Below are positions 7,263 through 51,683 of a DNA stretch of 64,000 bases, piece by piece. Position 1 is the stretch's first letter. Each line of letters opens with the position of its first letter. The position numbers and the translations under genes are program-made. This DNA is from Dictyostelium discoideum (taxonomy: Eukaryota): assembly GCA_000004695.1 (NCBI GenBank), contig CM000152.2, positions 4,416,001 to 4,480,000 of the forward strand, in the 5' to 3' direction. The notes beneath the pieces are model-generated. The model had not been told where the DNA came from and made no database searches. It saw only the letters and a program-made list of their open reading frames with translations.

Positions 7263-7805
7263 ATTTCTAATTTTTAGATTTTCATTTATTTTATTTTATG
7301 GTATGATCCACCCTCTTTTTGAAAAGAGGATTATTTAAACAGATATTTAACTCGAAATTTTAATCCCTTTACAATAATTTTCAAAAATAGTCTTTTATTG
7401 TGAAAATCTTTTTTTTTTTAGACTTTACTATTTTTTTTTCATTGAAAAAACGTATTCTTTTTGGTTCTTTTTTTTTTTTTTTTTTTGTTTTTTTTGTAAA
7501 ATAAGTTTTTGTTTTTTTTTTTTTTTTGTTTTTATTTTTTTTTTTATTTTTTTTTTTTATTTTTTTTTTTTATTAAAACTTGCTGTATTTGATAAATGAA
7601 TTATGACACTTTAGTTGGTGTGATTTTGTATACATTTTTTTTTTTTTTTTTTAAATGTATTTAATTTAATTATTTTTTTTATTTTTCATTATCTTTTTAC
7701 AATTTCAATCATGGACAGATAATAATTAAAAAAATAAATAAAAATAAAAAATTTCTTTTTTTAAATGTGTATTTTTTTTTTTTTTTTTAATATTATTATT
7801 ATTAT

Positions 7806-7925
7806 TTATTTTCCAGGATCATTTTCAGTGTTATTATATTGAGCGACAATAAAGTAAGACCACATAGCTTTATCACCTCTATGAAGGAAAGAATTGAATG
7901 GAGAATCGATTGAACCAGTGCGGTT
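7806..7925 (-). pseudogene. Truncated duplicate of the C-terminal end of the neighbouring BBE-like FAD oxidase gene.
   Basis: Bases 7811-7920 are about 90% identical to 8826-8935. The encoded RTGSIDSPFNSFLHRGDKAMWSYFIVAQYNNTENDP matches RTGSIDSPFNSFLHRGDEAMWSYTIVAQYNNTENDP, and similarity is lost outside this stretch. Confidence 0.6.
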
Positions 7926-8610
7926 GCCAATCTTGATATTCATCATCGATTTCATATACATATTTGTTGTTAAGACCCTGAAAATGAGCATTACTTTCAA
8001 ACAACCATCTTAAATTGGGTTGTTCTTAGAGTGAATATGCATCATCCAAAGCTACTAATACAGTAGCCTCCAGACGAATATTCTGTTTTGTAATTTGTGC
8101 CATGTTCTTCATTCCAACGCTGTAATATTCCTGGTGTATCTGTTGCAACATCATAACCAATTGCAACACACAATTATAATGGCAAATATAATTAGACAAG
8201 AACTGTTAGCATTACAAGAATATTATTAATAATTATCAAATTATTAAATTATTATAAAAATTAAATTAAAAAAATTAAAATTTAAAAAAAAAAAAAATTT
8301 TTTTTTTTTGATTACAAACACCCAACACCACAATACTCAACACCACAACTTTAAAACAATAAAATAATGTTTAAACATGTATATATAAAACCAAAATTGA
8401 CCTCTGAATCCACCTCTTCTTGCTGTTTTGATTTAACTCTTATTTAAAATGTTAAAATTTTATCTTTAGAAAAAAATTAAAATAAAAAAAAAAAAAATAT
8501 AAAAAAAAATAAAAAAAAAAAAATGGAAAAAGTGTTTAGAAAAAAAAAAAAATTAATTATTATTTAATAAAAGTATTATTTTAATTGTTTAATTTAATTA
8601 TTAAATTTAT

Positions 8611-10259
8611 TTATTTCTTTGGTAATTCAATTGATTGTGGATAATTAAAATAATTATTTGGATCATATTTTCCTTTAATTTCTTGAAGTTTTTTATAATT
8701 TGATTTGGTGACATAGAGTCCGGTTTGCCAATCTTCAAATTCATCATCTGGATAGTTATTATTTAATTTATCACCAATTGAAGAGAGTTTAGAGTTTACA
8801 AGTTTTCTAAGACCAGAGAATAATGGATCATTTTCAGTGTTATTATATTGAGCGACAATAGTGTATGACCACATAGCTTCATCACCTCTGTGAAGGAAAG
8901 AATTGAATGGAGAATCGATTGAACCAGTTCTATCTTGATTTTGTTTACCACCATGATAGAAAATAGCTTGATTAATATTTAACAATGTTTCTGGTTTAAC
9001 TAAAGAGGTTGAATTGATGATATTGGTGACGGCATATTTATAGAAATCGTTGATAGCCTTTGGTACATCGTTTTTAGATAATTTCTTAACGAATCTTCCT
9101 TTGGTGAATTGTCTTAATGGATTATTATCATAACTCATTGAGCTAATGACTTCCCAGAATGTTTTCTTTAAAGTTTGGATATCCATGGTGGTGACTTTAC
9201 CCAATGGTGTACAGGTTGGATTTGATGGTGGACAAAGGAAACCGGTTAACAATTTTCTGAATTCGAAATCGCCCTCTTCAAGTGGACCATTGTAAAAGAA
9301 TGTAATACTAGCGGATGGAGTCATATTTGCGGATTTCAAAGTTAATTGAGAATACATATTGGCATAGATATTTTCACGAGTTTGTTCAGTGGCAGAACGT
9401 ACATAAGAATCCAATAAGGCGAGAGCTTTATCTAAATTGACAATATCGAAACGAATGGTATTCTTGTAAAAGTATTGTGGAATTGGGTAAACTTTAATTT
9501 TGTAATCTACAACAACACCAAAACCACCACCACCAGAACCAGCCAATGCCCAATAGAGGTCACTATATTTATTCTTTGGATTGGCTTTAACAATTGAACC
9601 ATCTTCAAGTACAACGGTGAATTCTAATATGTTATCAGCCATATAACCATATTTACCACCAAAGTAATTTGATCCACCACCCAATACAACACCCATACCA
9701 ACAGTTGGACAACTACCAGCAGTTGTTGCCAATAATAATTTAGTTGTGGCATTATATAATTCAATAACTTGTACACCAGCTTGTACAACAACAGTTTGAG
9801 CTTCAACATCAATTTCAATACCTTTTAATGAACTTAAATCAATATTAACAGTTTTATTTAACATTGAAAATTGTGTTGCTGAATGACCACCTGATCTAAT
9901 TGATACCTAAAATTAAATTAATTTTTTAAAAAAAAAAAAAAAAACAAAAAAAAAAAAAATTAATTAATTAATTAATTGAATTTAAATTTTTAAAAAAATA
10001 ATAAAATGATTTTATAAAAAAAAAAAAAATAAAAACTTACACCTCTATTAATACTTTGTGCATATAAAATTGCATCACTAATTTCAGAAGCATTCGTTGG
10101 TTTAATATAACAGTATGCTCTATTATTCATTAATGGATTAATAAATCTATAATAATTTGGATTATTATAATCAACACATTGGACGGCTTGAGTTTTTGAA
10201 ATTTGATTAATAGTAATTAATACAAATGATAAAAATAATAAAATATTATTTAATTTCAT
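8611..10259 (-). CDS. Secreted FAD-binding oxidoreductase of the berberine-bridge-enzyme (BBE)-like / vanillyl-alcohol-oxidase superfamily, about 490 aa. Exons: 10259..10041, 9906..8611.
   Basis: Exon 1 encodes a signal peptide (MKLNNILLFLSFVLITINQISKT...SINRG) and ends at a GTAAGT donor. Exon 2 follows TTTTAG and begins VSIRSGGHS, the FAD-attachment motif R-S-G-G-H. It continues through the PCMH-type FAD-binding region (GGGFGVV) and ends with a BBE-type C-terminus (YKKLQEIKGKYDPNNYFNYPQSI). Confidence 0.85.
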
Positions 10260-10289
10260 TTTATTTTTTAAAAAATATTATTTAATTAT

Positions 10290-10325
<36 letters not shown>

Positions 10326-10531
10326 CAATATGTTTATGGTTTTTTTTTTTTTTTTATTATTAAAAATACAAAAAGGTTATTTTATTTTATTTTATTTATT
10401 ATTACAATATTTTTATTAGTTTTTATGGAAATACAATTTTAATGGTACAATTTATTATTATAATTATTTTGGATGATTAAAAAAAAAAAAAATAGTTCAA
10501 TTTATAATAAAATATTTAGAGGGAAAATAGA

Positions 10532-10581
<50 letters not shown>

Positions 10582-10889
10582 TAATTAAAATATCAGAATT
10601 TTTCTTAAATAATCATTGCGAGTACACAAGCAATGAATTTGTGACCTTTTAGTTTTTTTTTTTTTTTTTTATCTGAAAACATAAAGTTCAATGAATAGAA
10701 GGAAAATATCTTTTTTTTTTTAGCGAATTTTTAAAAAAAAAAATTTTCCAACCAATTTTTAGCGATTTACTTTTAAAAAAATGCGAGTAACTCTTTGAGA
10801 TTAAAATATCTAAATAACCAGAGTTATAAAAAATAAAAAAAATCTTTTATTTACCTAAAATCTCAAAAATAATTTGATTCTAATCATTT

Positions 10890-10920
<31 letters not shown>

Positions 10921-11174
10921 TTAAAATTAAAAGAAAAAGAAAAATCTAAAAAAAAAAAAAAAAAAAAATTTTAGTCTTGATAAAAAAAATGATTTATTAT
11001 TCGTTCGTTCATTCCATTTTTTTTTTTTTCTTTTGTCTGAAAAAAAAAAAAATCAAATATCTTTTCCTAATTTTTTTTTTTTTTTTTTTTTTTTCATTTT
11101 TTTTTCATTTTTTTTTTCTTTATTTTTTTTTCTTTATTTTTTTTTTCTTTATTTTTTTTTTTTATTCTTTTTTC

Positions 11175-11219
<45 letters not shown>

Positions 11220-11472
11220 CTTTATTTTTTTTTTTTTATTAAAACTCTTTATTTAAATTTCTTGTTACCAATATGGTAATGTTGAAAATGGAAATTATTT
11301 AATTTGAGAAAAAATAAAATCAAAAATTAAAATTATTATAATTATAAAATCTAAATAATAACCACACTATATGAATTAATATATATTGTTTATTTAATTT
11401 TGTGTAAAATCATTCAAATGTTAGCGTTTGTAAACACTTGGTGGTTGAACATAATTATAAAATTAATTTTTT

Positions 11473-11533
<61 letters not shown>

Positions 11534-12569
11534 GGATCTGAAAAAAAGTCGATATAATCACACCCCTATTAATATTTTTAAAATAAATTTAAATAAATTC
11601 AATGTATTCAATTATAGCCTAACTGTTTGATAGTATTAATAATCCACTATATCAACATTTAGATTGGCCTTCAATATTATGTGCACTTTATTCTTTTCAA
11701 ATTTTAAAAATAACACTAATATATTGAACCTTTGATTTCAACTAAAATAAAAATATATTATACTCTAAAAAAGGTATGTAGTTAAATTGCTATTATTATT
11801 ATTTTTATTTTTTATTTGAACAGAGGGTGTGTGGGTGTGCATTCAAGTGGTTATCATAATAATTTGGAATTCCTGAAAATAAAAAAAAAAAAAAAAAAAC
11901 AATTCACACACAATCAGTTTCTATTTATAAATATTTTTTTAAACAAAATGAAAATAAAAAAAAAAACATTTTATTTTTTTTATTTTTTTATTTTTTTTTT
12001 TATTTTTTAATTTTTTTTTTTTGGAATTTTTTTTTTTTTTTTTAATGTCATCTAAAAATACACGCACCTGTGTGTTTTTTTCTGTGTGTGTGTTGAAACA
12101 ACCCTTTTTTTAATTATTATTATTTTTATTTTATTTTTTATTTTTTTATTTTTAAATATAGTAATATTACATCAAAAATAAAAAAAATAAAAATAAAATT
12201 TAATGTTTTTTTTAATTTTTAACATTAAAAAAAAAAAAAAAAAAAAAAAAAATTAAAAATAGTTACTTCTCTCTTTCACACCACAACAACAACCAACAAC
12301 CAAATAGAATATTTATTCAATTTTTTATATTTATTCAAATTAATAATAATAGTTATACAATAACTATTTAGATAGATATCAAAATAACATAATACAATTT
12401 AAATGTGTTGGGAAATAACAAAAACAACATATTAAAATAAATAAATAAATTAAAAAAAAAACAAAGAGAAAGAGAAAGAGAGAAAATCAATCTAATAGGG
12501 AAACTTTTTTTTTTTTTTTATAAAAAATAATTGTAATAATAATTAATTCACAATCAATATTTCATATAC

Positions 12570-12603
<34 letters not shown>

Positions 12604-12700
12604 AAAAGTATTTATCATTTTCTTTTTGTAAATTCATCACCATCATTATAACCAACACTTCTATATAATATTAATAGTAATAATAATAATAATATTAATA

Positions 12701-12755
<55 letters not shown>

Positions 12756-13231
12756 CAACAATAATACAACTCACCCACCCACACACTTCACACACACCAC
12801 CCAATCTTTTTTTTTTTCTATTTTTTTTTTTTTTTTTTCTTTTTCTTTTTTTTTTTTTTTTTAACTCCTTATAATTTGATTATTTTTTTTGTATTCAATT
12901 TTTTCTTTTTTATTTTTAATTTTGTTAATTATTTATTATTATTATTATCATAAATAAACCATATAATTATATATAATATATCCATAAAATTTGTAACTAA
13001 AAAAATATATTAAAATTTCCTACTCTCTAGAAGGAAATTATCTTAACACTGTCGTGACTTTGTCCACATTATTTTAAAAAAATAAAATAAATATATAATA
13101 ATAAAAAAAAAAAAAATAAAAAAAAAATAATTGTAATAATATAGTAACAACAATAAAGACAACAATAGTAATATTAAAAAAAATTAAAAATTTTAAAAAA
13201 AAAAAAAAAATAAAAAAAAAAAAGAAAAATA

Positions 13232-14227
13232 ATGTACTCAGAAGATCCAGAAATTCCTATGAATCAAGAACCATTTAATAACAGTAATAATGTATCATTT
13301 AATAATTTTAATAATTTTATGAATGTAAGTTATTTGTTTTGTTTTTTTTTTTTTAATTACATTTTATATGTGTATATTAATAATATAATTTTATTTTTTT
13401 GTTTTATTATTTTTATTATTTTAGCCAAATGAAGAGGAACCAACAGAAGAGAAAACAGTTGCACCAAGAACAGTACATATTGGTAATTTAGAACATAATT
13501 ATAAACATGGTTATGGTAAGAATGAGATTGCAACCTCTAGATACTCTAGCATTAGTCGTATACCGCGTATCATTGTATCACAATTGATTCGTTTAATCAA
13601 TGTTTACTTTATAATCATCATAGTTTTATCTTTTATTGATGGTGTAAGTCCAACTGGTAAATTTACAACATTAGGTCCTTGGTTAATTACAATTACAATT
13701 TCAGTTTTAAGAGAAATTATTGAAGATTTAGTAAGTGTGGTGGTGTTGTTTGTTTGTTTGTTTGTTTATTATTAATAATAATAAATAATAATTATATTAA
13801 TATATTTTTAATATTTTATTTAATATAGAAAAGACAAAAACAAGATGAAGCAGTAAATTATGGTACATCAGAAGTATTTAGAAATGGACAATTTGTTCAA
13901 ACATTATGGAAAGATATTAGAGTTGGTGATATTGTTAAAGTACGTAATAGACAATATTTTCCAGCTGATATTTATATATTTTCAACTAGTGAACCAGAGA
14001 ATGTTTGTTGGTTCGAATCAAAGAATTTAGATGGCGAAACCAATTTAAAACAAAGACAAGCCACAAAAGAAACAATTTATCTAAAAGATAATGCTGAATT
14101 ACTTTCAAATTTTTGTGGTTTAATTGAATGTAATTCACCAACTAAAGATTTACTACATCTTAAAGGTTCTTTCTTTTTTGATGATAATTATGTAATTTTA
14201 ACACCAAAACAATTATTATTAAGAGTA

Positions 14228-40044: not shown

Positions 40045-41645
40045 TTCAAGTTGTTGTTCATTTTTATCTTTTTCTTTTTCATCATCATCATCATCATCAT
40101 CATCATTTAAACCTTGTTGTCTTTTTTCAGATTTTCTAAGATAATATAATAAAACTTCATTAAAATTTAAAATACTTGGTAAAATTGTATCTAATAAATC
40201 TTGATTATTTGCTTTCTTTAAATATTGAGATAAAACTCTAAGATTGATTGCTTGTTCCTTACTAAGATTAAATAAATCATATTCTCTACATTTATCAATA
40301 CCAAATTTACCTTTTGAAAATATTTCTAATAATACTACTTCAACTTCTTGTTCAAATAATTCTACTTCTAAATTTTTAATAAACTATAATATAAAAAAAA
40401 ATTTTATTTAAACAAAAAAAAAAAAAAAATAAATAAATAAAATAATTAGTTGATTTTTTTTTTTTTTTTTTTTTAATATATATATATTTTAATTATTTAA
40501 TTACCTTTGAAATCTCTAAAGATTTTTCTAACCAATAATCAATCAACATTGTTGAACAAGCTTCTCTAACAGATTGATCACGATCTTTTAAACCATTCTT
40601 TAAAATACCAACTCTTAATGAAATTGGAATGAATCTAATTTCAATCTTTTTACCAATGAAAATAAAAGAACCTTTTCTAACGGTAGGATTAATATCTAAT
40701 GTTTTCTCTAATATTGGTTGTAATGATTTCTTTGATGGTACTATATTATTTAATGCTGTAACTCTTACATCACTTTTTTTTTAAAATGAAAATTATATTT
40801 TAAAATTAATAATAAATAATTAATAATAAATAATAAATAATAAATAATAAATAATAAATAATAAATAATAACAATAATTAATTTACATACGGTGATGTAT
40901 CAAATCTTAACATATCAATTAATCTTGAAGTGATTGGATCACCTTGAGAAGTTGGGTCTTGGATTTTAGCTAATGAATAAATTGATTGTTTTCTAATGGC
41001 AGGTATTCTATCTTTACTTTTAGTGAGAATACATTCTATTAAATTTGACCAAGTGCTTTCATTGAATTCATATTCTTCTTTTAGATTTGATAATATCTCT
41101 GATAGTATTTGAATGCTTCTGAATCTAACTGGCTTCTCTTTACTATTGGATCTATTAATGAGATGATTTAATATTGAATTAAAAAATTCATCATATTTTT
41201 CATACTCTTCATCAATTTTATTTGATTTTCTTATCATTTCCTCGTCATCAATAATATTATTTTCATCATTATCTTCACCTTCTCCTTCTCCTTCTTCTTC
41301 AATGGTTCTTTTATTATTTACTATTTGTGTTAAAAACTGAGTTAATAACTTAATGATTCTTTCAATTGCTAATTCTCTTTTAAAATGAATTAAAACTCTA
41401 TCAGCTACTGAAAAAATTATTAAATTAAAATGAGTTTTTAAAAAATTACTATTATAACATCCTAATAATAATATTCTTAATTCATTGATTGATTTTTTAC
41501 TTGGTGCTATAATCTTTTGTGATTCATCAAAAATTGTAGTTATCTTTGATTTTAATTTATTAACTTTTTCATTATTATTATTAATATTATTATTATTTAT
41601 GTTATTATTTGTTGTAGTTGGTTTTGATTTTGTTTTTTGACACAT
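36796..41645 (-). CDS. Condensin complex subunit 3 (CAP-G/Cnd3-like HEAT-repeat protein) with a very large Lys/Glu/Ser-rich repetitive C-terminal extension, about 1536 aa. Exons: 41645..40891, 40772..40505, 40383..36796.
   Basis: N-terminal HEAT repeats carry CAP-G signature stretches: KPVRFRSIQILSEIL (human NCAPG has VRFRVCQLINKLL), IRKQSIYSLAKIQD, and DTSPDVRVTALNNI spanning intron 1. Junctions are CC|GTATGT to AAAAAG|T (phase 2), AAG|GTAATT to TTATAG (phase 0). The C-terminus contains three or more tandem units of about 40 aa ([44 protein letters not shown]). Confidence 0.75.
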
Positions 41646-42031: not shown

Positions 42032-42114
42032 GCAAGGGTAGGAAAGTCTGGTTAAATCCGTGTGACTTAAGATCTCATCCATTCGGTTCGCGAGTTCGAA
42101 TCTCGCCTCTTGCA
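42032..42114 (+). tRNA. tRNA-Leu, anticodon UAA, type II with a long variable arm; 83 nt without CCA.
   Basis: The acceptor stem gcaaggg pairs with ctcttgc (7 bp, one G-U), with discriminator A. There is a 3-bp D-stem (gga/tcc). The anticodon stem-loop is tgtga-cTTAAga-tctca, with U33 and the anticodon TAA. The variable arm is ccattcgg. The T-arm is gcgag-TTCGAAT-ctcgc. Confidence 0.85.
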
Positions 42115-42380: not shown

Positions 42381-45368
42381 TTGGTTTTAAAAACTTTTTC
42401 AGCCAAACAAAAATCCATAATGGCATTAACAATAATAAATAATTATTTAGATAATAATATTGAAATAAATAAGAATGAAATTTTATTTTGGAAAGTTTAT
42501 AGAAATATTTATTTAAAGAAACAAATTTTTAAACAATTAGAATCAGAAATTTATTTTAAAGATTATAGAATGTGTAATACAAAATCTAGAATTAAATTTA
42601 AAGATATTAAATCATTGAAATGGATGATAGATAATTGTGAATTTGAACTTTTAAAGAGAAAGATTGAAAATAAAGAATTCATTCAAATTTCTGGGGAAGG
42701 TATTAAATCATTGGTAAACATAAAAGATCATAGCATATCATTAGAAATACTTGAAATGTTAATGAGAAATCAAAGAGATAATATGGAAACGTTAAGACCT
42801 CTTGATTTTGCAATAAAACATGAAAACATGGAAATGGTAAAAGTGCTCATTAATGAACCATACTCTATGAGAATAACTTTAATGAATATTCAATCAGCAG
42901 TTCGTGCATGTTCTCCACAATTTTTGGATGAATTAATACCGTTGAGCGATATTGATATAAGAACTGGTTCAATAGCTCATGTTTATTGGATATTAAATCG
43001 TTGTGATTATAAAAAACAAGATTTTTTAAATGTTATAGTCAAATATCCTGAAACGATTGCACCACTTGGTCAATCTAGTTTATACAATATGTTACCACCA
43101 ACTTTCATATTAGATATAACAAGTATAACATCGGTTGAACAATTATTTTCATTAATACAGGTTAATTTATTTAAAAAGAAAAATAATTTGGGTATAAAAG
43201 AATTAGTTTCATTAATTACTGTTTATGATAAGTTTAAATATTCTATTAATATTTCAAAAATATTAATTTTCTTTGCATTATATATTGAAAATAATCCTAT
43301 ACAAAACATCAATGAAATTAAATCAAAAATGTTTGAAATTTTCAATAATACTAATAATAATAATAGTGAAATAGAAAAACAATTATTTAAATTATTTATT
43401 TTAGAAATAAATTCAAAAGAGATTTATGAAATTTATTTTTATAAATATTTTGAATTAATTGAAGAAATGGATAATAATAAAAGATATAAAACAATAAAAT
43501 TTTTAAACATTTTACCAAAATTTAATGAAATAATAAAATCAAATGATAAAAATGAAATAGTTAATTTCATTATAGAACTAATTAATCAAGGTAATTTAAG
43601 AACTCCGAAATATAATAATTTATTTAAGAAAATAATGGATACAATAATTAATTATTTAATGGATGATGAATATTATTATAAAATAATTATTAATGAAATT
43701 AAAAGAAAGAATTTAGAAAAGTTATTTTCAATACCATTTGAATGGAGTCCGATATTAAAAGAAATTATGATTGAACCAATCGATGGAGGATTAAATAAAT
43801 TATTTATAAATGATAAAGAAACAATTGATTGGTTATCATCTACATTTAAATTAAAATTAATAAATCATAGGAATGTTAAAACCATATATAATAATAAAAT
43901 GAAAAAAGGATTAGTTCAATTTTCAACACATCAACTTTATACATACTCAATTTTAATGTTAAACAAATACTCTTATGGAAAAAGTTTAATGAGGTCATTA
44001 ATTTATCCATCAATCTATAGTCATCCTTTAATAACAGTAAATGGAAATAAAGAATATTTAAATAAATCAGAAATTATGGAACTATTATTTAAATCAATAA
44101 TATCATATAATTTAAATGAAACCTTATTATATGTTAGTTTAATAGATTTAAAGAATGATTTTAAACAGTTTATTTCAATTTGGAATAGAAAATCAAAATC
44201 AAATGAATATAGATTCTTATTTTTAGATCAATTATTTTCAAAAACTGATATTGGAACAATTAAAAATATTAAAGTTGAAATTGTAATCGATTCAATAAAA
44301 TATTGGATAAATGAAGCAAAATCAAATTTACAAAACAATGATTTAGAATTATTATTTGAAACTATTATAAATTATTTATATAAAAAGTTAATTCAAAATC
44401 AAAATGTAAAAATTAATCAAGTTATTGAAATTAGAGAATTAATTTTAAAGTTAAATATTAAATTAGAGCATACAGAATTTCATGTATTTTATTATTTAAA
44501 TATCAGATCACCAAAACTTATTAGATGTTTATTATTAAATGAATCAGTATTATCATCACCATTATGTATTAGATTTCCGGATGGGTCAAAATATTATTGT
44601 TATAACCATATTAATAATAAACTTCCAACTAATAAAGTTCCAAAAATATTAGTTCCAACAAAAATTTCATTTGATTTATTATTTGGTAATAATGGAGAAT
44701 CATTTATAAATTTACTTGAATATCTTTATCAATTTCGGCCACATAATGTAGATACTCTATTAAAATTTTATTTAGATATAAATAGATTTGATTTATTTTT
44801 AAAAGGATTTCAAACATATAAAAAAGCAACTGATTATGGTCATATTAAATCTATAACTTTTGATTTTATTGAAGCATTATCAGTTGGAAATATTGATCAT
44901 AGTAAATTAATAATATTTCAAAAATATATTGATTTAGTTAAAATATCTAATTTTAAGGATGAAATTCAATTCGTTCAAGATATGTCAAATTTTTCAATTT
45001 CAAAAAATAGAATAGAGTTAGTTTCATTTATAATCAACTACTTTAAATTAAAAAATCTCAAGATTTATCGTCCTACTTTTAATTTATGCCACTATAATAT
45101 TTTTAAATACATATTTGAAAATCATTTCAATGATATTAAATCCATTAGTGTAGCTTTCATTGATTTTGGTGAATGCGTTTCATCATCTGATACTTTTATT
45201 CAAGATTCTATATTATTATTTGAATTATTTTTAAAATACTATCCAAGTTCATTAGATAATGTTTCAAATAGTTTATTTTTTTTTAATATCAAAAGAACTA
45301 AACTCAATTCAAAAATATTTGATTACTTATTATCAAAAAAATTAATAACCCAAGAAAATCATAATTAA
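42381..45368 (+). CDS. Orphan protein of 995 aa, or 982 aa if translation starts at Met-14 (42420); no domain recognised. It is the first member of a tandem paralog pair.
   Basis: It is a continuous single-exon ORF. The paralog at 45687..48665 starts at the position equivalent to Met-14. Moderately complex K/N/I-rich sequence suggests a lineage-specific family. Confidence 0.7.
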   Translation: MVLKTFSAKQKSIMALTIINNYLDNNIEINKNEILFWKVYRNIYLKKQIFKQLESEIYFKDYRMCNTKSRIKFKDIKSLKWMIDNCEFELLKRKIENKEFIQISGEGIKSLVNIKDHSISLEILEMLMRNQRDNMETLRPLDFAIKHENMEMVKVLINEPYSMRITLMNIQSAVRACSPQFLDELIPLSDIDIRTGSIAHVYWILNRCDYKKQDFLNVIVKYPETIAPLGQSSLYNMLPPTFILDITSITSVEQLFSLIQVNLFKKKNNLGIKELVSLITVYDKFKYSINISKILIFFALYIENNPIQNINEIKSKMFEIFNNTNNNNSEIEKQLFKLFILEINSKEIYEIYFYKYFELIEEMDNNKRYKTIKFLNILPKFNEIIKSNDKNEIVNFIIELINQGNLRTPKYNNLFKKIMDTIINYLMDDEYYYKIIINEIKRKNLEKLFSIPFEWSPILKEIMIEPIDGGLNKLFINDKETIDWLSSTFKLKLINHRNVKTIYNNKMKKGLVQFSTHQLYTYSILMLNKYSYGKSLMRSLIYPSIYSHPLITVNGNKEYLNKSEIMELLFKSIISYNLNETLLYVSLIDLKNDFKQFISIWNRKSKSNEYRFLFLDQLFSKTDIGTIKNIKVEIVIDSIKYWINEAKSNLQNNDLELLFETIINYLYKKLIQNQNVKINQVIEIRELILKLNIKLEHTEFHVFYYLNIRSPKLIRCLLLNESVLSSPLCIRFPDGSKYYCYNHINNKLPTNKVPKILVPTKISFDLLFGNNGESFINLLEYLYQFRPHNVDTLLKFYLDINRFDLFLKGFQTYKKATDYGHIKSITFDFIEALSVGNIDHSKLIIFQKYIDLVKISNFKDEIQFVQDMSNFSISKNRIELVSFIINYFKLKNLKIYRPTFNLCHYNIFKYIFENHFNDIKSISVAFIDFGECVSSSDTFIQDSILLFELFLKYYPSSLDNVSNSLFFFNIKRTKLNSKIFDYLLSKKLITQENHN

Positions 45369-45619
45369 AATTAAAAAAAAATAAAAAAAAAAAAAAAAAA
45401 ACATTTTAATAATAAATCGTTCTTAATCATTCTTTTTTAGTTTTTTTTTTTTTTTTTTTATTATTTTATTATTATTTTTATTCCTTTTTTTTTTTTTTTT
45501 TTTTTTTAAAAAATATATATATTTTTGGTATTTCAGTCTTTTTTTTTGACAGGTCATAATACCAAGCCAATCTTTTATCAGATTTTTTTTTCCACAAAAA
45601 TTCCCAAAAAATTTTAACG

Positions 45620-45655
<36 letters not shown>

Positions 45656-45686
45656 AATTTTTTGAAATAAATAATTAGTCAAAGCA

Positions 45687-48665
45687 ATGGATCATATTAT
45701 TAATAATAATGAAAATGAAAATTTATTTTGGAAAGTTTATAGAAATGTTTATTTAAATAAAAAAATATTTGAACAGTTAGAAATAGTGTTGGATATTAAA
45801 TTTAAAGATTATAGAATGTATAATTCTAAATCTAGAATTAAATTTAAAGATATTAATTCATTAAAATGGATGATAGATAATTGTGAATTTGAAATTTTAA
45901 AGAAAAAGATTGAAAATGAAGAATTTATTCAAATTTGTGTGTTTGGTATGAAATCATTGGCAAAAATAAAAGATGAAAACTTGTCAATCCAACTATTAAA
46001 AATGTTAATGAATAATCAAAGAGATAATTTGGAACCTTACATTATTGGTGTTGCAATAGAATATGAAAAATTAAAAATGATAAAAGTGCTAGTTAATGAA
46101 CCATACTCTATGGAAATAACTAGATTTAATATTGATCAAGCAGTTCAAACATGTTCAGCTCAATTTTTGGATGAATTATTGTTAATGTGTGACTTTGAAT
46201 TAAGAGAAACCTGCAAAAATTTTAAATTATCCCTTATTCATCAGTCAATAAATAATTCTAAAAATAATGAAAATAATGATATATTAAATATTATCATTAA
46301 ATATCCTGAAATGATTCTTCCGATTCAAAATCGTTTATATACTCAATATAGTACACCATATATACGTTATAATTTACCAAGCTTGACATCTGCTAAACAA
46401 TTATTTTCAATATTTGAAACTAATTTATTTAAAAATGAATTTAAAGTCACAAAAGATTTAATTACAGTAATTATCAGGGATCAATTTAAATATCCATTCA
46501 ATATTTCAAAATTATTAGTTTTATTTGGATTGTATATACAGAATTTATATTTCGATGAATCTCAACAATTGATAGATAAAAAACAAGAAATTAAATCAAA
46601 AATGTTTGAAATATTCGATAATAATGAAACTTCAATTAATGAAAAAGAAAAACAATTATTTAAATTATTTATTTTAGAAATTAATTCAAAAGAAATTTAT
46701 AAAATTTATTTTTATAAATATTCAGAATTAATTGATGAAATGGATAATAACTCAAGTTATAAAACATTAAGTTTTTTAAATGTTTTTCAAAAATTTGATG
46801 AGATAATAAAATTGAATGATAAAAATGAATTAACAAATTTCATTTTAAAAATTATTGATAGTGAAATTCCAATTAAAGGTCAAAAATTCAAAAACTTATT
46901 TAAAAAAATAATTGATACAATAATTAATTATTTAATGGATGATGAATATAATTATAAAATAATTATTAATGAAATTAAAAGAAAGAATTTAGAAAAGTTA
47001 TTTTCAATACCATTTGAATGGAATCCAATTTTAAGAGAAATTATGATTGAACCAATCGATGGAGGATTAAATAAATTATTTATAAATGATAAAGAAACAA
47101 TTGATTGGTTATCATCTACATTTAAATTAAAATCAAAAAATCATAAAAATGTTAAAACCATATATAATAATAAAATGAAAAAAGGATTAGTTCAATTTTC
47201 AACACATCAACTTTATACATACTCAATTTTAATGTTAAACAAATACTCTTATGGAAAAAGTTTAATGAGGTCATTAATTTATCCATCAATCTATAGTCAT
47301 CCTTTAATAACAGTAAATGGAAATAAAGAATATTTAAATAAATCAGAAATTATGGAACTATTATTTAAATCAATAATATCATATAATTTAAATGAAACCT
47401 TATTATATGTTAGTTTAATAGATTTAAAGAATGATTTTAAACAGTTTATTTCAATTTGGAATAGAAAATCAAAATTAAATGAATATAGATTCTTATTTTT
47501 AGATCAATTATTTTCAAAAACTGATATTGGAACAATTAAAAATATTAAAGTTGAAATTGTAATCGATTCAATAAAATATTGGATAAATGAAGCAAAATCA
47601 AATTTACAAAACAATGATTTAGAATTATTATTTGAAACTATTATAAATTATTTATATAAAAAGTTAATTCAAAATCAAAATGTAAAAATTAATCAAGTTA
47701 TTGAAATTAGAGAACTTGTTTTAATATTAAATATTAAATTAGAGCACACACAATTTCATGTATTTTATTATTTAAATATCAAATCACCAAAACTTATTAA
47801 ATATTTATTATTAAATGAATCATTATTATCATCACTTTTGATTAATTTAGTTTCACCATCCTTTAAATTCCCAGATGGATTTAAATATTATTGTAGTAAT
47901 TCTGCTATTAATTATAATCAAATTCATCCCACTGATTCAATTCCAATAATATTAGATCCAATAAAAATTTCATTTGATTTTATAGTAAACGAATCATTTA
48001 TGAATTTATTAGAATATATTGATAAATTTTGGTCAAATAATAATACTTTAAAAGTAAATAAGCAATTATATTATTATTTAGATATTAATAGATTTGATTT
48101 ATTTTTAAAAGAATTTGAAGAAAACAAAGAAGCAAATGTATTTAAAAAAGCTGGTAATATCGCAATGTTAAATAAAGAATTTATAAGATCTTTATCAGTT
48201 GGAAAGATCAATGATAGTAAATTAATAAACTTTAAAAAATACATCGACCTGTCCCAACTATTTAAATATCAAGAAAATGAAAAATTCACACAAGATATTA
48301 TAAATCATTCAATTGTTGCCAATGAAAAAGAATTAGTTTCATTTATAATTAATTATTTAAAAATAGAGAAAATCAATATTTATTGTGAAACTTTTAATTT
48401 ATGCTACTATGATATTTTTAAATACATATTTGAAAATCATTCCAATACTATTAAATCCATTGATGTTGGATTTGTTCAAAATAAATGTATATCAGGAACT
48501 GATACCTTTATTCAAGACTCTATATCATTATTTGAATTATTTTTAAAATATTACCCAAATTCATTTGATAATATTTCATTCATTGGAATAACCTCAAACT
48601 CAAAATTACATCACTACTTTGTATCAATAAAATTAATGCCAGAATATTCCCACACAAACAAATAA
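45687..48665 (+). CDS. Orphan protein of 992 aa, the tandem paralog of the gene at 42381..45368.
   Basis: It is a continuous ORF. It is collinear with the upstream paralog over its full length, at about 60-65% aa identity at the ends but more than 97% across the central ~310 aa. Confidence 0.7.
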   Translation: MDHIINNNENENLFWKVYRNVYLNKKIFEQLEIVLDIKFKDYRMYNSKSRIKFKDINSLKWMIDNCEFEILKKKIENEEFIQICVFGMKSLAKIKDENLSIQLLKMLMNNQRDNLEPYIIGVAIEYEKLKMIKVLVNEPYSMEITRFNIDQAVQTCSAQFLDELLLMCDFELRETCKNFKLSLIHQSINNSKNNENNDILNIIIKYPEMILPIQNRLYTQYSTPYIRYNLPSLTSAKQLFSIFETNLFKNEFKVTKDLITVIIRDQFKYPFNISKLLVLFGLYIQNLYFDESQQLIDKKQEIKSKMFEIFDNNETSINEKEKQLFKLFILEINSKEIYKIYFYKYSELIDEMDNNSSYKTLSFLNVFQKFDEIIKLNDKNELTNFILKIIDSEIPIKGQKFKNLFKKIIDTIINYLMDDEYNYKIIINEIKRKNLEKLFSIPFEWNPILREIMIEPIDGGLNKLFINDKETIDWLSSTFKLKSKNHKNVKTIYNNKMKKGLVQFSTHQLYTYSILMLNKYSYGKSLMRSLIYPSIYSHPLITVNGNKEYLNKSEIMELLFKSIISYNLNETLLYVSLIDLKNDFKQFISIWNRKSKLNEYRFLFLDQLFSKTDIGTIKNIKVEIVIDSIKYWINEAKSNLQNNDLELLFETIINYLYKKLIQNQNVKINQVIEIRELVLILNIKLEHTQFHVFYYLNIKSPKLIKYLLLNESLLSSLLINLVSPSFKFPDGFKYYCSNSAINYNQIHPTDSIPIILDPIKISFDFIVNESFMNLLEYIDKFWSNNNTLKVNKQLYYYLDINRFDLFLKEFEENKEANVFKKAGNIAMLNKEFIRSLSVGKINDSKLINFKKYIDLSQLFKYQENEKFTQDIINHSIVANEKELVSFIINYLKIEKINIYCETFNLCYYDIFKYIFENHSNTIKSIDVGFVQNKCISGTDTFIQDSISLFELFLKYYPNSFDNISFIGITSNSKLHHYFVSIKLMPEYSHTNK

Positions 48666-48772: not shown

Positions 48773-51683
<2,911 letters not shown>

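Follow-up and report, generated by a model that had tools for sequence, protein, structure and literature searches.

The tandem gene pair

The stretch analysed here (the window) comprises 64,000 nucleotides of the Dictyostelium discoideum AX4 genome (assembly GCA_000004695.1, contig CM000152.2, positions 4,416,001 to 4,480,000), has a GC content of about 20% and shows poly-A/T runs between the genes and AAT/CAA triplet runs within open reading frames (ORFs). On its plus strand lie two adjacent genes, DDB_G0281421 (42420..45368; in the following gene A) and DDB_G0281423 (45687..48665; gene B), which are nearly identical in their central parts and clearly diverged at both ends. We interpret this mosaic, with a probability of about 90%, as the product of recurrent interlocus (ectopic) gene conversion, that is, of the concerted evolution of one internal module in A and B.

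Both genes have a single-exon coding sequence (CDS), of 982 amino acids plus stop in A and 992 amino acids plus stop in B, and are separated by an intergenic spacer of 318 bp rich in poly-A/T (45369..45686). In a protein search the product of A (42420-45365) matched the annotated AX4 protein DDB_G0281421 with 100% identity and coverage, and the neighbouring protein matched DDB_G0281423 with 100% identity. A preliminary description of the window, made from the letters and a list of ORFs only, had called the two genes collinear tandem paralogs, which is borne out by the ORFs and the alignment. It had placed gene A at 42381..45368; the end stands, the start does not, since the mechanical ORF opens at TTG 42381 and the annotated protein begins at ATG 42420. 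In the papers searched there is mention of neither DDB_G0281421 nor DDB_G0281423.

Mosaic identity of the two genes in AX4

Aligned globally by codon, guided by the protein, A and B are 82.2% identical at the nucleotide level (2871 aligned nucleotides) and 66% identical at the amino acid level. These averages conceal a very uneven distribution: in 90-nucleotide windows the identity lies between about 51 and 93% in the N- and C-terminal parts, is 94-100% from about position 43629 on, reaches 100% over most of 43899-44390 and drops after about 44480. The uniform divergence which, according to the preliminary description, would speak against a mosaic is thus not seen; the identity jumps at sharp borders. 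The segment for which more than 95% nucleotide identity had been noticed (~43636-44565 against ~46912-47840) aligns without gaps and is 97.2% identical, 26 of 930 nucleotides being different (43636-44565 versus 46912-47841). Within it lies a core tract (A 43872..44438, counterpart B 47148..47714) with a sole difference, which in the codon alignment is C at A 44200 (TCA, Ser) and T at B 47476 (TTA, Leu); the single tca/tta difference had been recognized before, but the length of the core is 567 bp rather than about 540 bp. The flanks are 75.6% (N-terminal) and 73.3% (C-terminal) identical in nucleotides and 53% and 51% in amino acids when gap columns are scored as mismatches, so that their divergence is confirmed at a somewhat lower figure than the 60-65% amino acid identity given earlier.

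Synonymous divergence (dS) was determined from Nei-Gojobori counts. The AX4 core contains no synonymous difference (Sd = 0) over 103.8 synonymous sites, as compared with a proportion of synonymous differences (pS) of 0.313 and a dS of 0.41 in the flanks, which is the course of dS (near 0 in the core, high in the flanks) that had been proposed as a check for conversion. On both sides of the core there are shoulders with intermediate values (43617-43871, dS 0.125; 44439-44565, dS 0.20). By our own arithmetic a core like that of AX4 would arise at flank-level divergence with a probability of about 1e-17. When the A/B alignment columns were permuted 10,000 times, the longest identical run never exceeded 70 nucleotides (observed 328), the number of differences in a 567-nucleotide window never fell below 63 (observed 1) and, when only third codon positions were considered, the longest run never exceeded 63 (observed 189). 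The mosaic pattern therefore far exceeds chance and is not the result of selection at the protein level.

Comparison of six genomes

AX4 was compared with five genomes available as de novo Nanopore+Illumina assemblies (PMC12745789), namely those of two isolates named 'D. discoideum' (L001 and L004), one 'D. cf. discoideum' (L003; Dcf) and two D. citrinum (L002 and L005); Dd2 and Dd3 are labels of D. discoideum isolates other than AX4. Several isolates labelled 'discoideum' probably represent cryptic sister species (PMC12745789). All five added genomes contain the tandem pair in a matching gene neighbourhood, and all 12 genes are intact ORFs, gene A in six of the six genomes. The A/B identity profile is alike in every genome, flanks of about 73-78% identity enclosing a centre of 90-97%.

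Neighbor-joining (NJ) trees were calculated separately for the N-flank (1116 ungapped nucleotides), the C-flank (708), the centre (951) and the core (567). In the trees of both flanks all A copies fall into one clade and all B copies into another, and the branching within each clade matches the species tree (support in the N-flank 100%), from which it follows that the A/B duplication is older than all lineages sampled. In the trees of the centre and the core the sequences cluster by lineage instead: Dcf_A with Dcf_B (100%), AX4_A with AX4_B (99% bootstrap support, core) and the four D. citrinum copies with each other (100%). In the core the two AX4 copies are 99.8% identical to one another versus 97.0-97.9% to their D. 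discoideum orthologs, the two Dcf copies 99.2% versus 95.4% to AX4, and the D. citrinum copies 91% versus 86-87% to AX4.

Site patterns in quartets of two genomes agree with the trees. In the flanks the ratios of sites supporting orthology to sites supporting concerted evolution were 240:1, 151:1 and 176:0, in one further comparison 96:4 (for the N-flank of AX4/Dcf orthology:concerted:other is 151:1:1). In the core the ratios orthology:concerted:other were 0:10:0 (AX4/Dd2), 0:23:0 (AX4/Dcf) and 0:45:0 (AX4/D. citrinum), to be read with the reservation that where A equals B within a genome 'orthology' quartets are excluded by construction, so that the zero counts alone would not carry the argument, which is based on dS and on lineage-specific changes common to both paralogs. 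Across all twelve sequences the core has no fixed A/B site and about 40 sites with a lineage-specific state in both paralogs; in the N-flank there are 45 fixed A/B sites and, among its 1116 sites, 8 with a lineage-specific state in both paralogs.

The dS values complete the picture. Between orthologs the core dS is 0.075-0.081 (AX4 versus its nearest relative Dd2) and 0.28-0.31 (AX4 versus D. citrinum), which is comparable to the flanks. Between A and B of the same genome the core dS is 0 (AX4), 0.039, 0.048, 0.019 (Dcf) and 0.11-0.19 (D. citrinum). The central zone is homogenized; it is neither slow-evolving nor mutationally cold.

The central zone and its borders

The zone to which conversion is assigned extends in A from 43617 to 44562 (amino acids ~400-715) and in B from 46893 to 47838; the offset is +3276, there is no indel within the zone, and in none of the six genomes does the zone in A contain a site diagnostic for A versus B. 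Across all six genomes there are 69 such diagnostic sites, none of them within A 43613-44562, the last on the left being 43612 and the first on the right 44563. When only the four genomes of the D. discoideum complex are considered, the number of diagnostic sites increases to 240, with 43616 as the last on the left and 44555 as the first on the right. Also at the protein level the borders are evident and identical across all genomes.

The left border is marked by a hyper-diverged patch of 57 bp (A 43560..43616, B 46833-46892) with 23 differing positions, almost all of them nonsynonymous, and a 3-bp indel (B 46860-46862). The A and B versions of the patch (A-type ...ELIN-QGNLxTxKY, B-type ...KIIDxEIPIKGQKF) are each kept across species. 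Mismatches as dense as these would block the extension of a heteroduplex and would thus act as a self-reinforcing barrier. At the right border (A 44555..44576, B ~47831-47870) type-specific sequence resumes; in the structure model (see below) this is the start of a low-confidence linker (amino acids 712-741). An 18-bp insertion at the right border of B (47841..47858; protein ...LLSSLLINL...) was considered as the maker of this border and rejected because it is private to AX4_B and absent from all other B orthologs, whereas the border is common to all genomes. Likewise rejected was the idea that the centre is the conserved core of a wider family, since in 23 distant members it is 24% identical to A, versus 25% and 22% for the flanks.

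Both D. citrinum genomes contain additional homogenized A/B patches at positions equivalent to A ~44685-44885 and ~42468-42700, with identities of up to 89-95%, which are absent in the D. discoideum complex. Conversion thus sometimes runs past the usual borders, which are strongly preferred but not absolute.

Episodes, extents and direction

The preliminary description had assumed one recent tract. A recent tract in AX4 is indeed present; a single event, however, does not account for the data, because the central zone has been homogenized recurrently, in at least five temporally separate episodes across the six genomes, of which the AX4 core is only the latest. The episodes are recognized by states that are specific for a lineage and present in both paralogs. 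The branch between D. citrinum and the other lineages has 43 such sites, distributed across the zone, and the stem of D. discoideum sensu stricto has 8; Dcf has 6 plus an insertion common to both copies (in the Asn run described below), and AX4 has 2, A/B differences kept by Dd2 and Dd3 having been lost there in addition. One of the D. citrinum isolates has a private identical run (44231-44548) with 1 difference versus 6 in the sister isolate.

Mapped window by window, the tracts extend over ~43884-44340 in AX4, over the whole zone in Dcf (43617-44490), over patches within 43974-44300 in Dd2/Dd3, and over 43617-43790, 43884-43970 and 44070-44490 in D. citrinum, where further tracts lie close to the N-terminus and within the C-flank (~44685-44885). 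The extents vary by lineage, which indicates that the events were independent.

At position 44200, the only one differing between the AX4 cores, C is present in both copies of Dd2 and in both copies of D. citrinum, and T in both copies of Dcf; the C/T difference in AX4 is probably a mutation later than the AX4 conversion. From 1 difference in 567 nucleotides versus about 2.5-3% between AX4 and Dd2 we infer that the last homogenization of the AX4 core took place at roughly 6% of the AX4-Dd2 divergence time (own arithmetic, with a wide error).

At about 44330 in the core ('NLQNN-DLELL') an indel of Asn codons (AAT-rich) behaves in concert: neither AX4 copy has it, the two Dcf copies have a long form and the A and B copies of D. 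citrinum a short one; in Dd2 it is present in B only. Independent microsatellite slippage could be an alternative.

Proposed mechanism

We propose that a tandem duplication gave rise to A and B before D. citrinum and the D. discoideum complex diverged. From that duplication on, non-reciprocal homologous repair between A and B, on the same chromosome or between sister chromatids, would have overwritten the central ~0.95 kb (amino acids ~400-715) repeatedly. New substitutions and indels arising in the zone would in this way spread to both copies of each lineage, and the N- and C-terminal parts would evolve apart as A-type and B-type. The molecular route is probably the repair of double-strand breaks by synthesis-dependent strand annealing with the paralog serving as template. 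The borders can be rationalized if conversion requires long stretches of near-identity and is rejected at dense mismatches and indels, which would probably make them self-reinforcing; in addition, selection may remove events that overrun the borders and thereby keep functionally diverged flanks.

The conservation of the type-specific residues suggests that there is selection for distinct flanks. A contrast in the style of McDonald and Kreitman (MK) for the N-flank gave nonsynonymous:synonymous ratios of 41:4 for fixed and 467:189 for variable sites (p = 0.003), a comparison which is biased by the faster erosion of fixed synonymous sites. It is compatible with adaptive divergence of the N-flank and only suggestive. 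One step further would be a functional architecture, in which selection drives the N- and C-terminal parts apart and a constant central module is kept identical, as for example in two subunits or isoforms that dock to the same partner and recognize different targets. In that case conversion would serve to maintain the module and selection would hold the sharp conserved borders. A related idea is that the zone contains a cis-acting recombination hotspot. We regard these extensions of the proposal as rather unlikely.

Several points weigh against recurrent gene conversion or limit how far it can be specified. Conversion is deduced here from the comparison of sequences, and the 'orthology' counts of zero in the core follow in part from the identity of A and B itself, as mentioned above. 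The polarity in AX4 is mixed, with only 4 informative sites: at 43942 both copies are B-derived and at 44362 and 44367 both are A-derived, which indicates either more than one event or patchy repair of a heteroduplex. A signature of GC-biased conversion is present in many eukaryotes; in the A/B zone the GC content at third codon positions (GC3) is not raised, being ~0.10 in the tract versus 0.09-0.14 in its flanks and, taken over all 12 genes, 0.08-0.11 in the centre versus 0.09-0.18 in the flanks. Finally, the confinement of conversion to this zone is not explained by conservation, the centre being no better conserved than the flanks across the distant family (24% versus 25% and 22%).

Alternative explanations

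Among the alternatives, the one that fares best, although it is very unlikely, is that everything goes back to one recent event in the AX4 lineage, either a conversion or a double crossover. AX4 does have its own very recent tract, with 1 difference in 567 bp and a 99% clade of AX4_A and AX4_B in the core. Yet A/B identity in the same zone is also high (95-99%) in each of the five other genomes, and on the D. discoideum stem as well as in Dcf and D. citrinum the two paralogs have lineage-specific changes in common. The shoulders of the AX4 core, with dS values of 0.125 and 0.20 as compared to 0.41 in the flanks, are read as the remnants of older events.

Unequal crossing-over, or loss followed by re-duplication (birth and death), is slightly less probable still. 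Tandem direct repeats are a substrate for unequal exchange, and the preliminary description had named unequal crossing-over beside conversion. A single exchange of this type would, however, leave one chimeric gene or three genes rather than two genes with an internal patch. There are two copies in six of the six genomes, the flanks on either side are still of the A or B type, and each gene switches twice (from type-specific to common and back to type-specific) and not once; upon re-duplication the flanks would have been homogenized too. An internal patch with both flanks kept and a constant copy number is the expected product of gene conversion without crossover.

The two copies could also be alike without any transfer of sequence if the zone were under extreme purifying selection as DNA or RNA, for instance because of an overlapping functional element. 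This explanation is hardly credible. In its favour, the ratio of nonsynonymous to synonymous divergence (dN/dS) between orthologs is 0.16-0.5 in the centre, somewhat below the 0.2-0.8 of the flanks. But the zone does change between lineages (core ortholog dS up to 0.31), and it changes in both paralogs together, a co-variation which constraint cannot yield. An Rfam scan of the zone gave no match, and the part that the wider family conserves lies elsewhere; the N-terminus, which is truly constrained, shows only ~84-92% A/B nucleotide identity and an orthologous phylogeny in the D. discoideum complex. The earlier conclusion that the core reflects gene conversion rather than uniform purifying selection is thus upheld by the core dS of 0 versus 0.41, by the segment trees and by the shared lineage-specific changes.

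That the identical block is an artefact of assembly, two repeats having been collapsed or mis-joined, is next to impossible. Near-identical blocks of 0.5-1 kb lying 3.3 kb apart in DNA of ~20% GC are difficult to assemble from short reads. In the independent chromosome-level assembly GCA_054883475.1 (locus L008), however, both CDS are 100% identical to those of the window over 2949 and 2979 nucleotides, the C/T difference included. Outside the two CDS, L008 differs from the window by 8 mismatches and 14 gap positions in 12,957 nucleotides, mainly in homopolymers. The assembly probably represents the new assembly of either AX2-214 or AX4 from PMC12745789. The five Nanopore+Illumina assemblies show the same architecture, each with its own lineage-specific sequence, so that the suspicion of an artefact, raised in the preliminary description, is laid to rest by base-for-base agreement of the CDS in one assembly and by the concordance of five long-read assemblies.

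A third, unlinked member of the family that repeatedly donates the central module to both genes has equally little to recommend it: the family has many members, but there is no other match in the window and the closest other members, at different loci, are only ~30% identical in protein. For the same reason a D. dimigraforme locus (L007) and a locus of a P0006-type paralog (L006) were rejected as nucleotide outgroup or donor, being only ~30% identical.

The protein family

The preliminary description had regarded the two genes as orphans without a recognizable domain and perhaps lineage-specific. They are lineage-restricted and without a domain, as it said; they are not orphans, since they belong to a Dictyostelium family of about 60 clusters. 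A HMMER profile search yielded 60 representative clusters (clustered at 50% identity) at E values up to 1e-3, and all clusters looked up contained hypothetical Dictyostelium proteins, from D. purpureum, D. dimigraforme, D. citrinum and the D. discoideum complex. The nearest relatives beyond the A/B pair are ~30% identical and are encoded at other loci. A word-index homolog search seeded with the alignment revealed no new family members.

In Pfam nothing above threshold was found for A and B, only sub-threshold ankyrin matches at amino acids 108-145 of A, which do not place the protein in the Ank clan. For eight family members the Pfam search also gave nothing above threshold, except for one true ankyrin protein among weak profile matches. 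The N-terminal motif LFWKVYRN.YL had made an F-box a candidate; this lead was abandoned, because a Pfam scan at E values up to 1 showed no F-box family for A or B. Nor was there a significant match, by sequence or by fold, of A/B to the known alpha-solenoid families (TPR/HEAT/ARM/PPR), and a sequence-profile search of the PDB gave no match below E = 0.2.

An AlphaFold model from 6 sequences was too poor for use (predicted local distance difference test, pLDDT, 55). With 29 family sequences AlphaFold2 produced a usable, all-alpha model (pLDDT 73.6; predicted template modelling score, pTM, 0.54). A and B thus belong to a family of helical-repeat proteins that is restricted to the genus and evolves fast (dN/dS between orthologs 0.2-0.8). 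Their N-terminal part is ankyrin-like, and the conversion zone falls in an uncharacterized helical region.

The best-conserved part of the family is formed by the N-terminal ~90 residues, which in the 23 distant members are 39% identical to A. They contain the motif 'EILFWKVYRN.YL...IF..L ... R.KFKDI.SL.WMI.N' (window 42468-42700; A amino acids ~17-95), for which there is no Pfam model and in which F23, N29, I36 and K81 are nearly invariant. The P0006-type paralog, which is ~30% identical to A, is called at L006 as two adjacent genes (10001-11281 and 11377-13590; 426 and 737 amino acids) and in another isolate as a single protein of 1153 amino acids; the split may be due to a frameshift, an intron or pseudogenization.

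The neighbourhood of the pair

A gene for tRNA-Leu(UAA) is located on the plus strand at 42032-42114, ~300 bp upstream of A, a position which is conserved in four of the five other genomes (L001 9619-9701, L002 9479-9563, L004 6293-6375 and L005 7238-7322). In one of the D. citrinum genomes (L005) an ORF of 650 amino acids with an RVT_1 reverse-transcriptase domain (7747-9699) lies between the tRNA gene and A; it looks like the insertion of a tRNA-gene-targeted retroelement. In Dcf (L003) the tRNA-Leu gene (110-194) is ~6 kb away from A (6493), with a large neighbouring gene on the minus strand between them, which points to a local rearrangement in comparison with AX4.

The minus-strand ORFs downstream of B show AAT/ATT and CAA/TTG runs (poly-Asn, poly-Gln) at 48876-49000, 49490-49560 and 49690-49830; such triplet runs are typical of Dictyostelium coding sequence. 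The minus-strand ORF at 50391-51683 encodes a Tesmin/TSO1 CXC domain (E = 4e-9), and that at 40878-41645, also on the minus strand, has a near-threshold match to a HEAT repeat (22.4 bits versus a cut-off of 23.5).

Related systems and significance

Mosaic paralogs generated by gene conversion are known from other organisms; the A/B pair is a new and unusually clean example of this process, and the mechanism is not new. In Arabidopsis halleri interlocus gene conversion is reported to lead to mosaic divergence of the tandem HMA4 copies (bioRxiv 10.1101/2025.10.29.685298). As in A and B, the paralogs are arranged in tandem and conversion differs in rate or efficacy from one part of the gene to another, giving a mosaic of homogenized and diverged parts. 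The two cases differ in that A and B are two single-exon copies, in which no intron/exon structure can shape the tracts, in that the A/B zone is internal with both ends diverged, and in that it has been followed in six genomes from several species-level lineages rather than in one species.

In Leptodactylus frogs the tandem duplicates of ATP1A1 confer toxin resistance, and 12 selected residues resist homogenization owing to selection against conversion (bioRxiv 10.1101/2020.08.04.234435). There, too, trans-specific tandem duplicates evolve in concert and keep paralog-specific substitutions despite ongoing conversion. In the frogs most of the gene is homogenized, whereas in A/B only about one third is homogenized and two large flanks resist; and the functional reason is known in the frogs, whereas selection on the A/B flanks is only suggested. 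In Tigriopus californicus islands of divergence persist under conversion between the GOT1 paralogs (PMC3728101). The divergent islands lie beside converted regions, as in A/B, and are read as candidates for selection on a new function; the organism and the gene family are others.

Within Dictyostelium the tgr genes are the closest comparison. For the tgr genes, which include the allorecognition pair tgrB1/tgrC1, recombination or gene conversion has been discussed as a source of variation (PMC12745789; bioRxiv 10.1101/2025.10.22.684067). Like tgrB1/tgrC1, A and B are an adjacent, rapidly evolving Dictyostelium pair, and the same new genome set was used. The tgr genes, however, encode polymorphic cell-surface proteins, whereas A and B have no Pfam domain and conversion between them homogenizes rather than diversifies. 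A tgr-like polymorphism hotspot at the A/B locus was rejected, since the neighbouring sequence is equally diverged between strains.

What the pair exemplifies is concerted evolution limited to a module: the same ~0.95 kb has been homogenized at least five times, within base-pair-sharp borders that are common to the species. Dictyostelium is haploid, genetically tractable and efficient in homologous recombination. A and B would be a convenient natural system in which to determine rates of ectopic conversion and tract lengths and to distinguish heteroduplex rejection from selection at the borders. For the study of Dictyostelium gene families in general the finding means that paralog trees can mislead unless the converted segments are masked.

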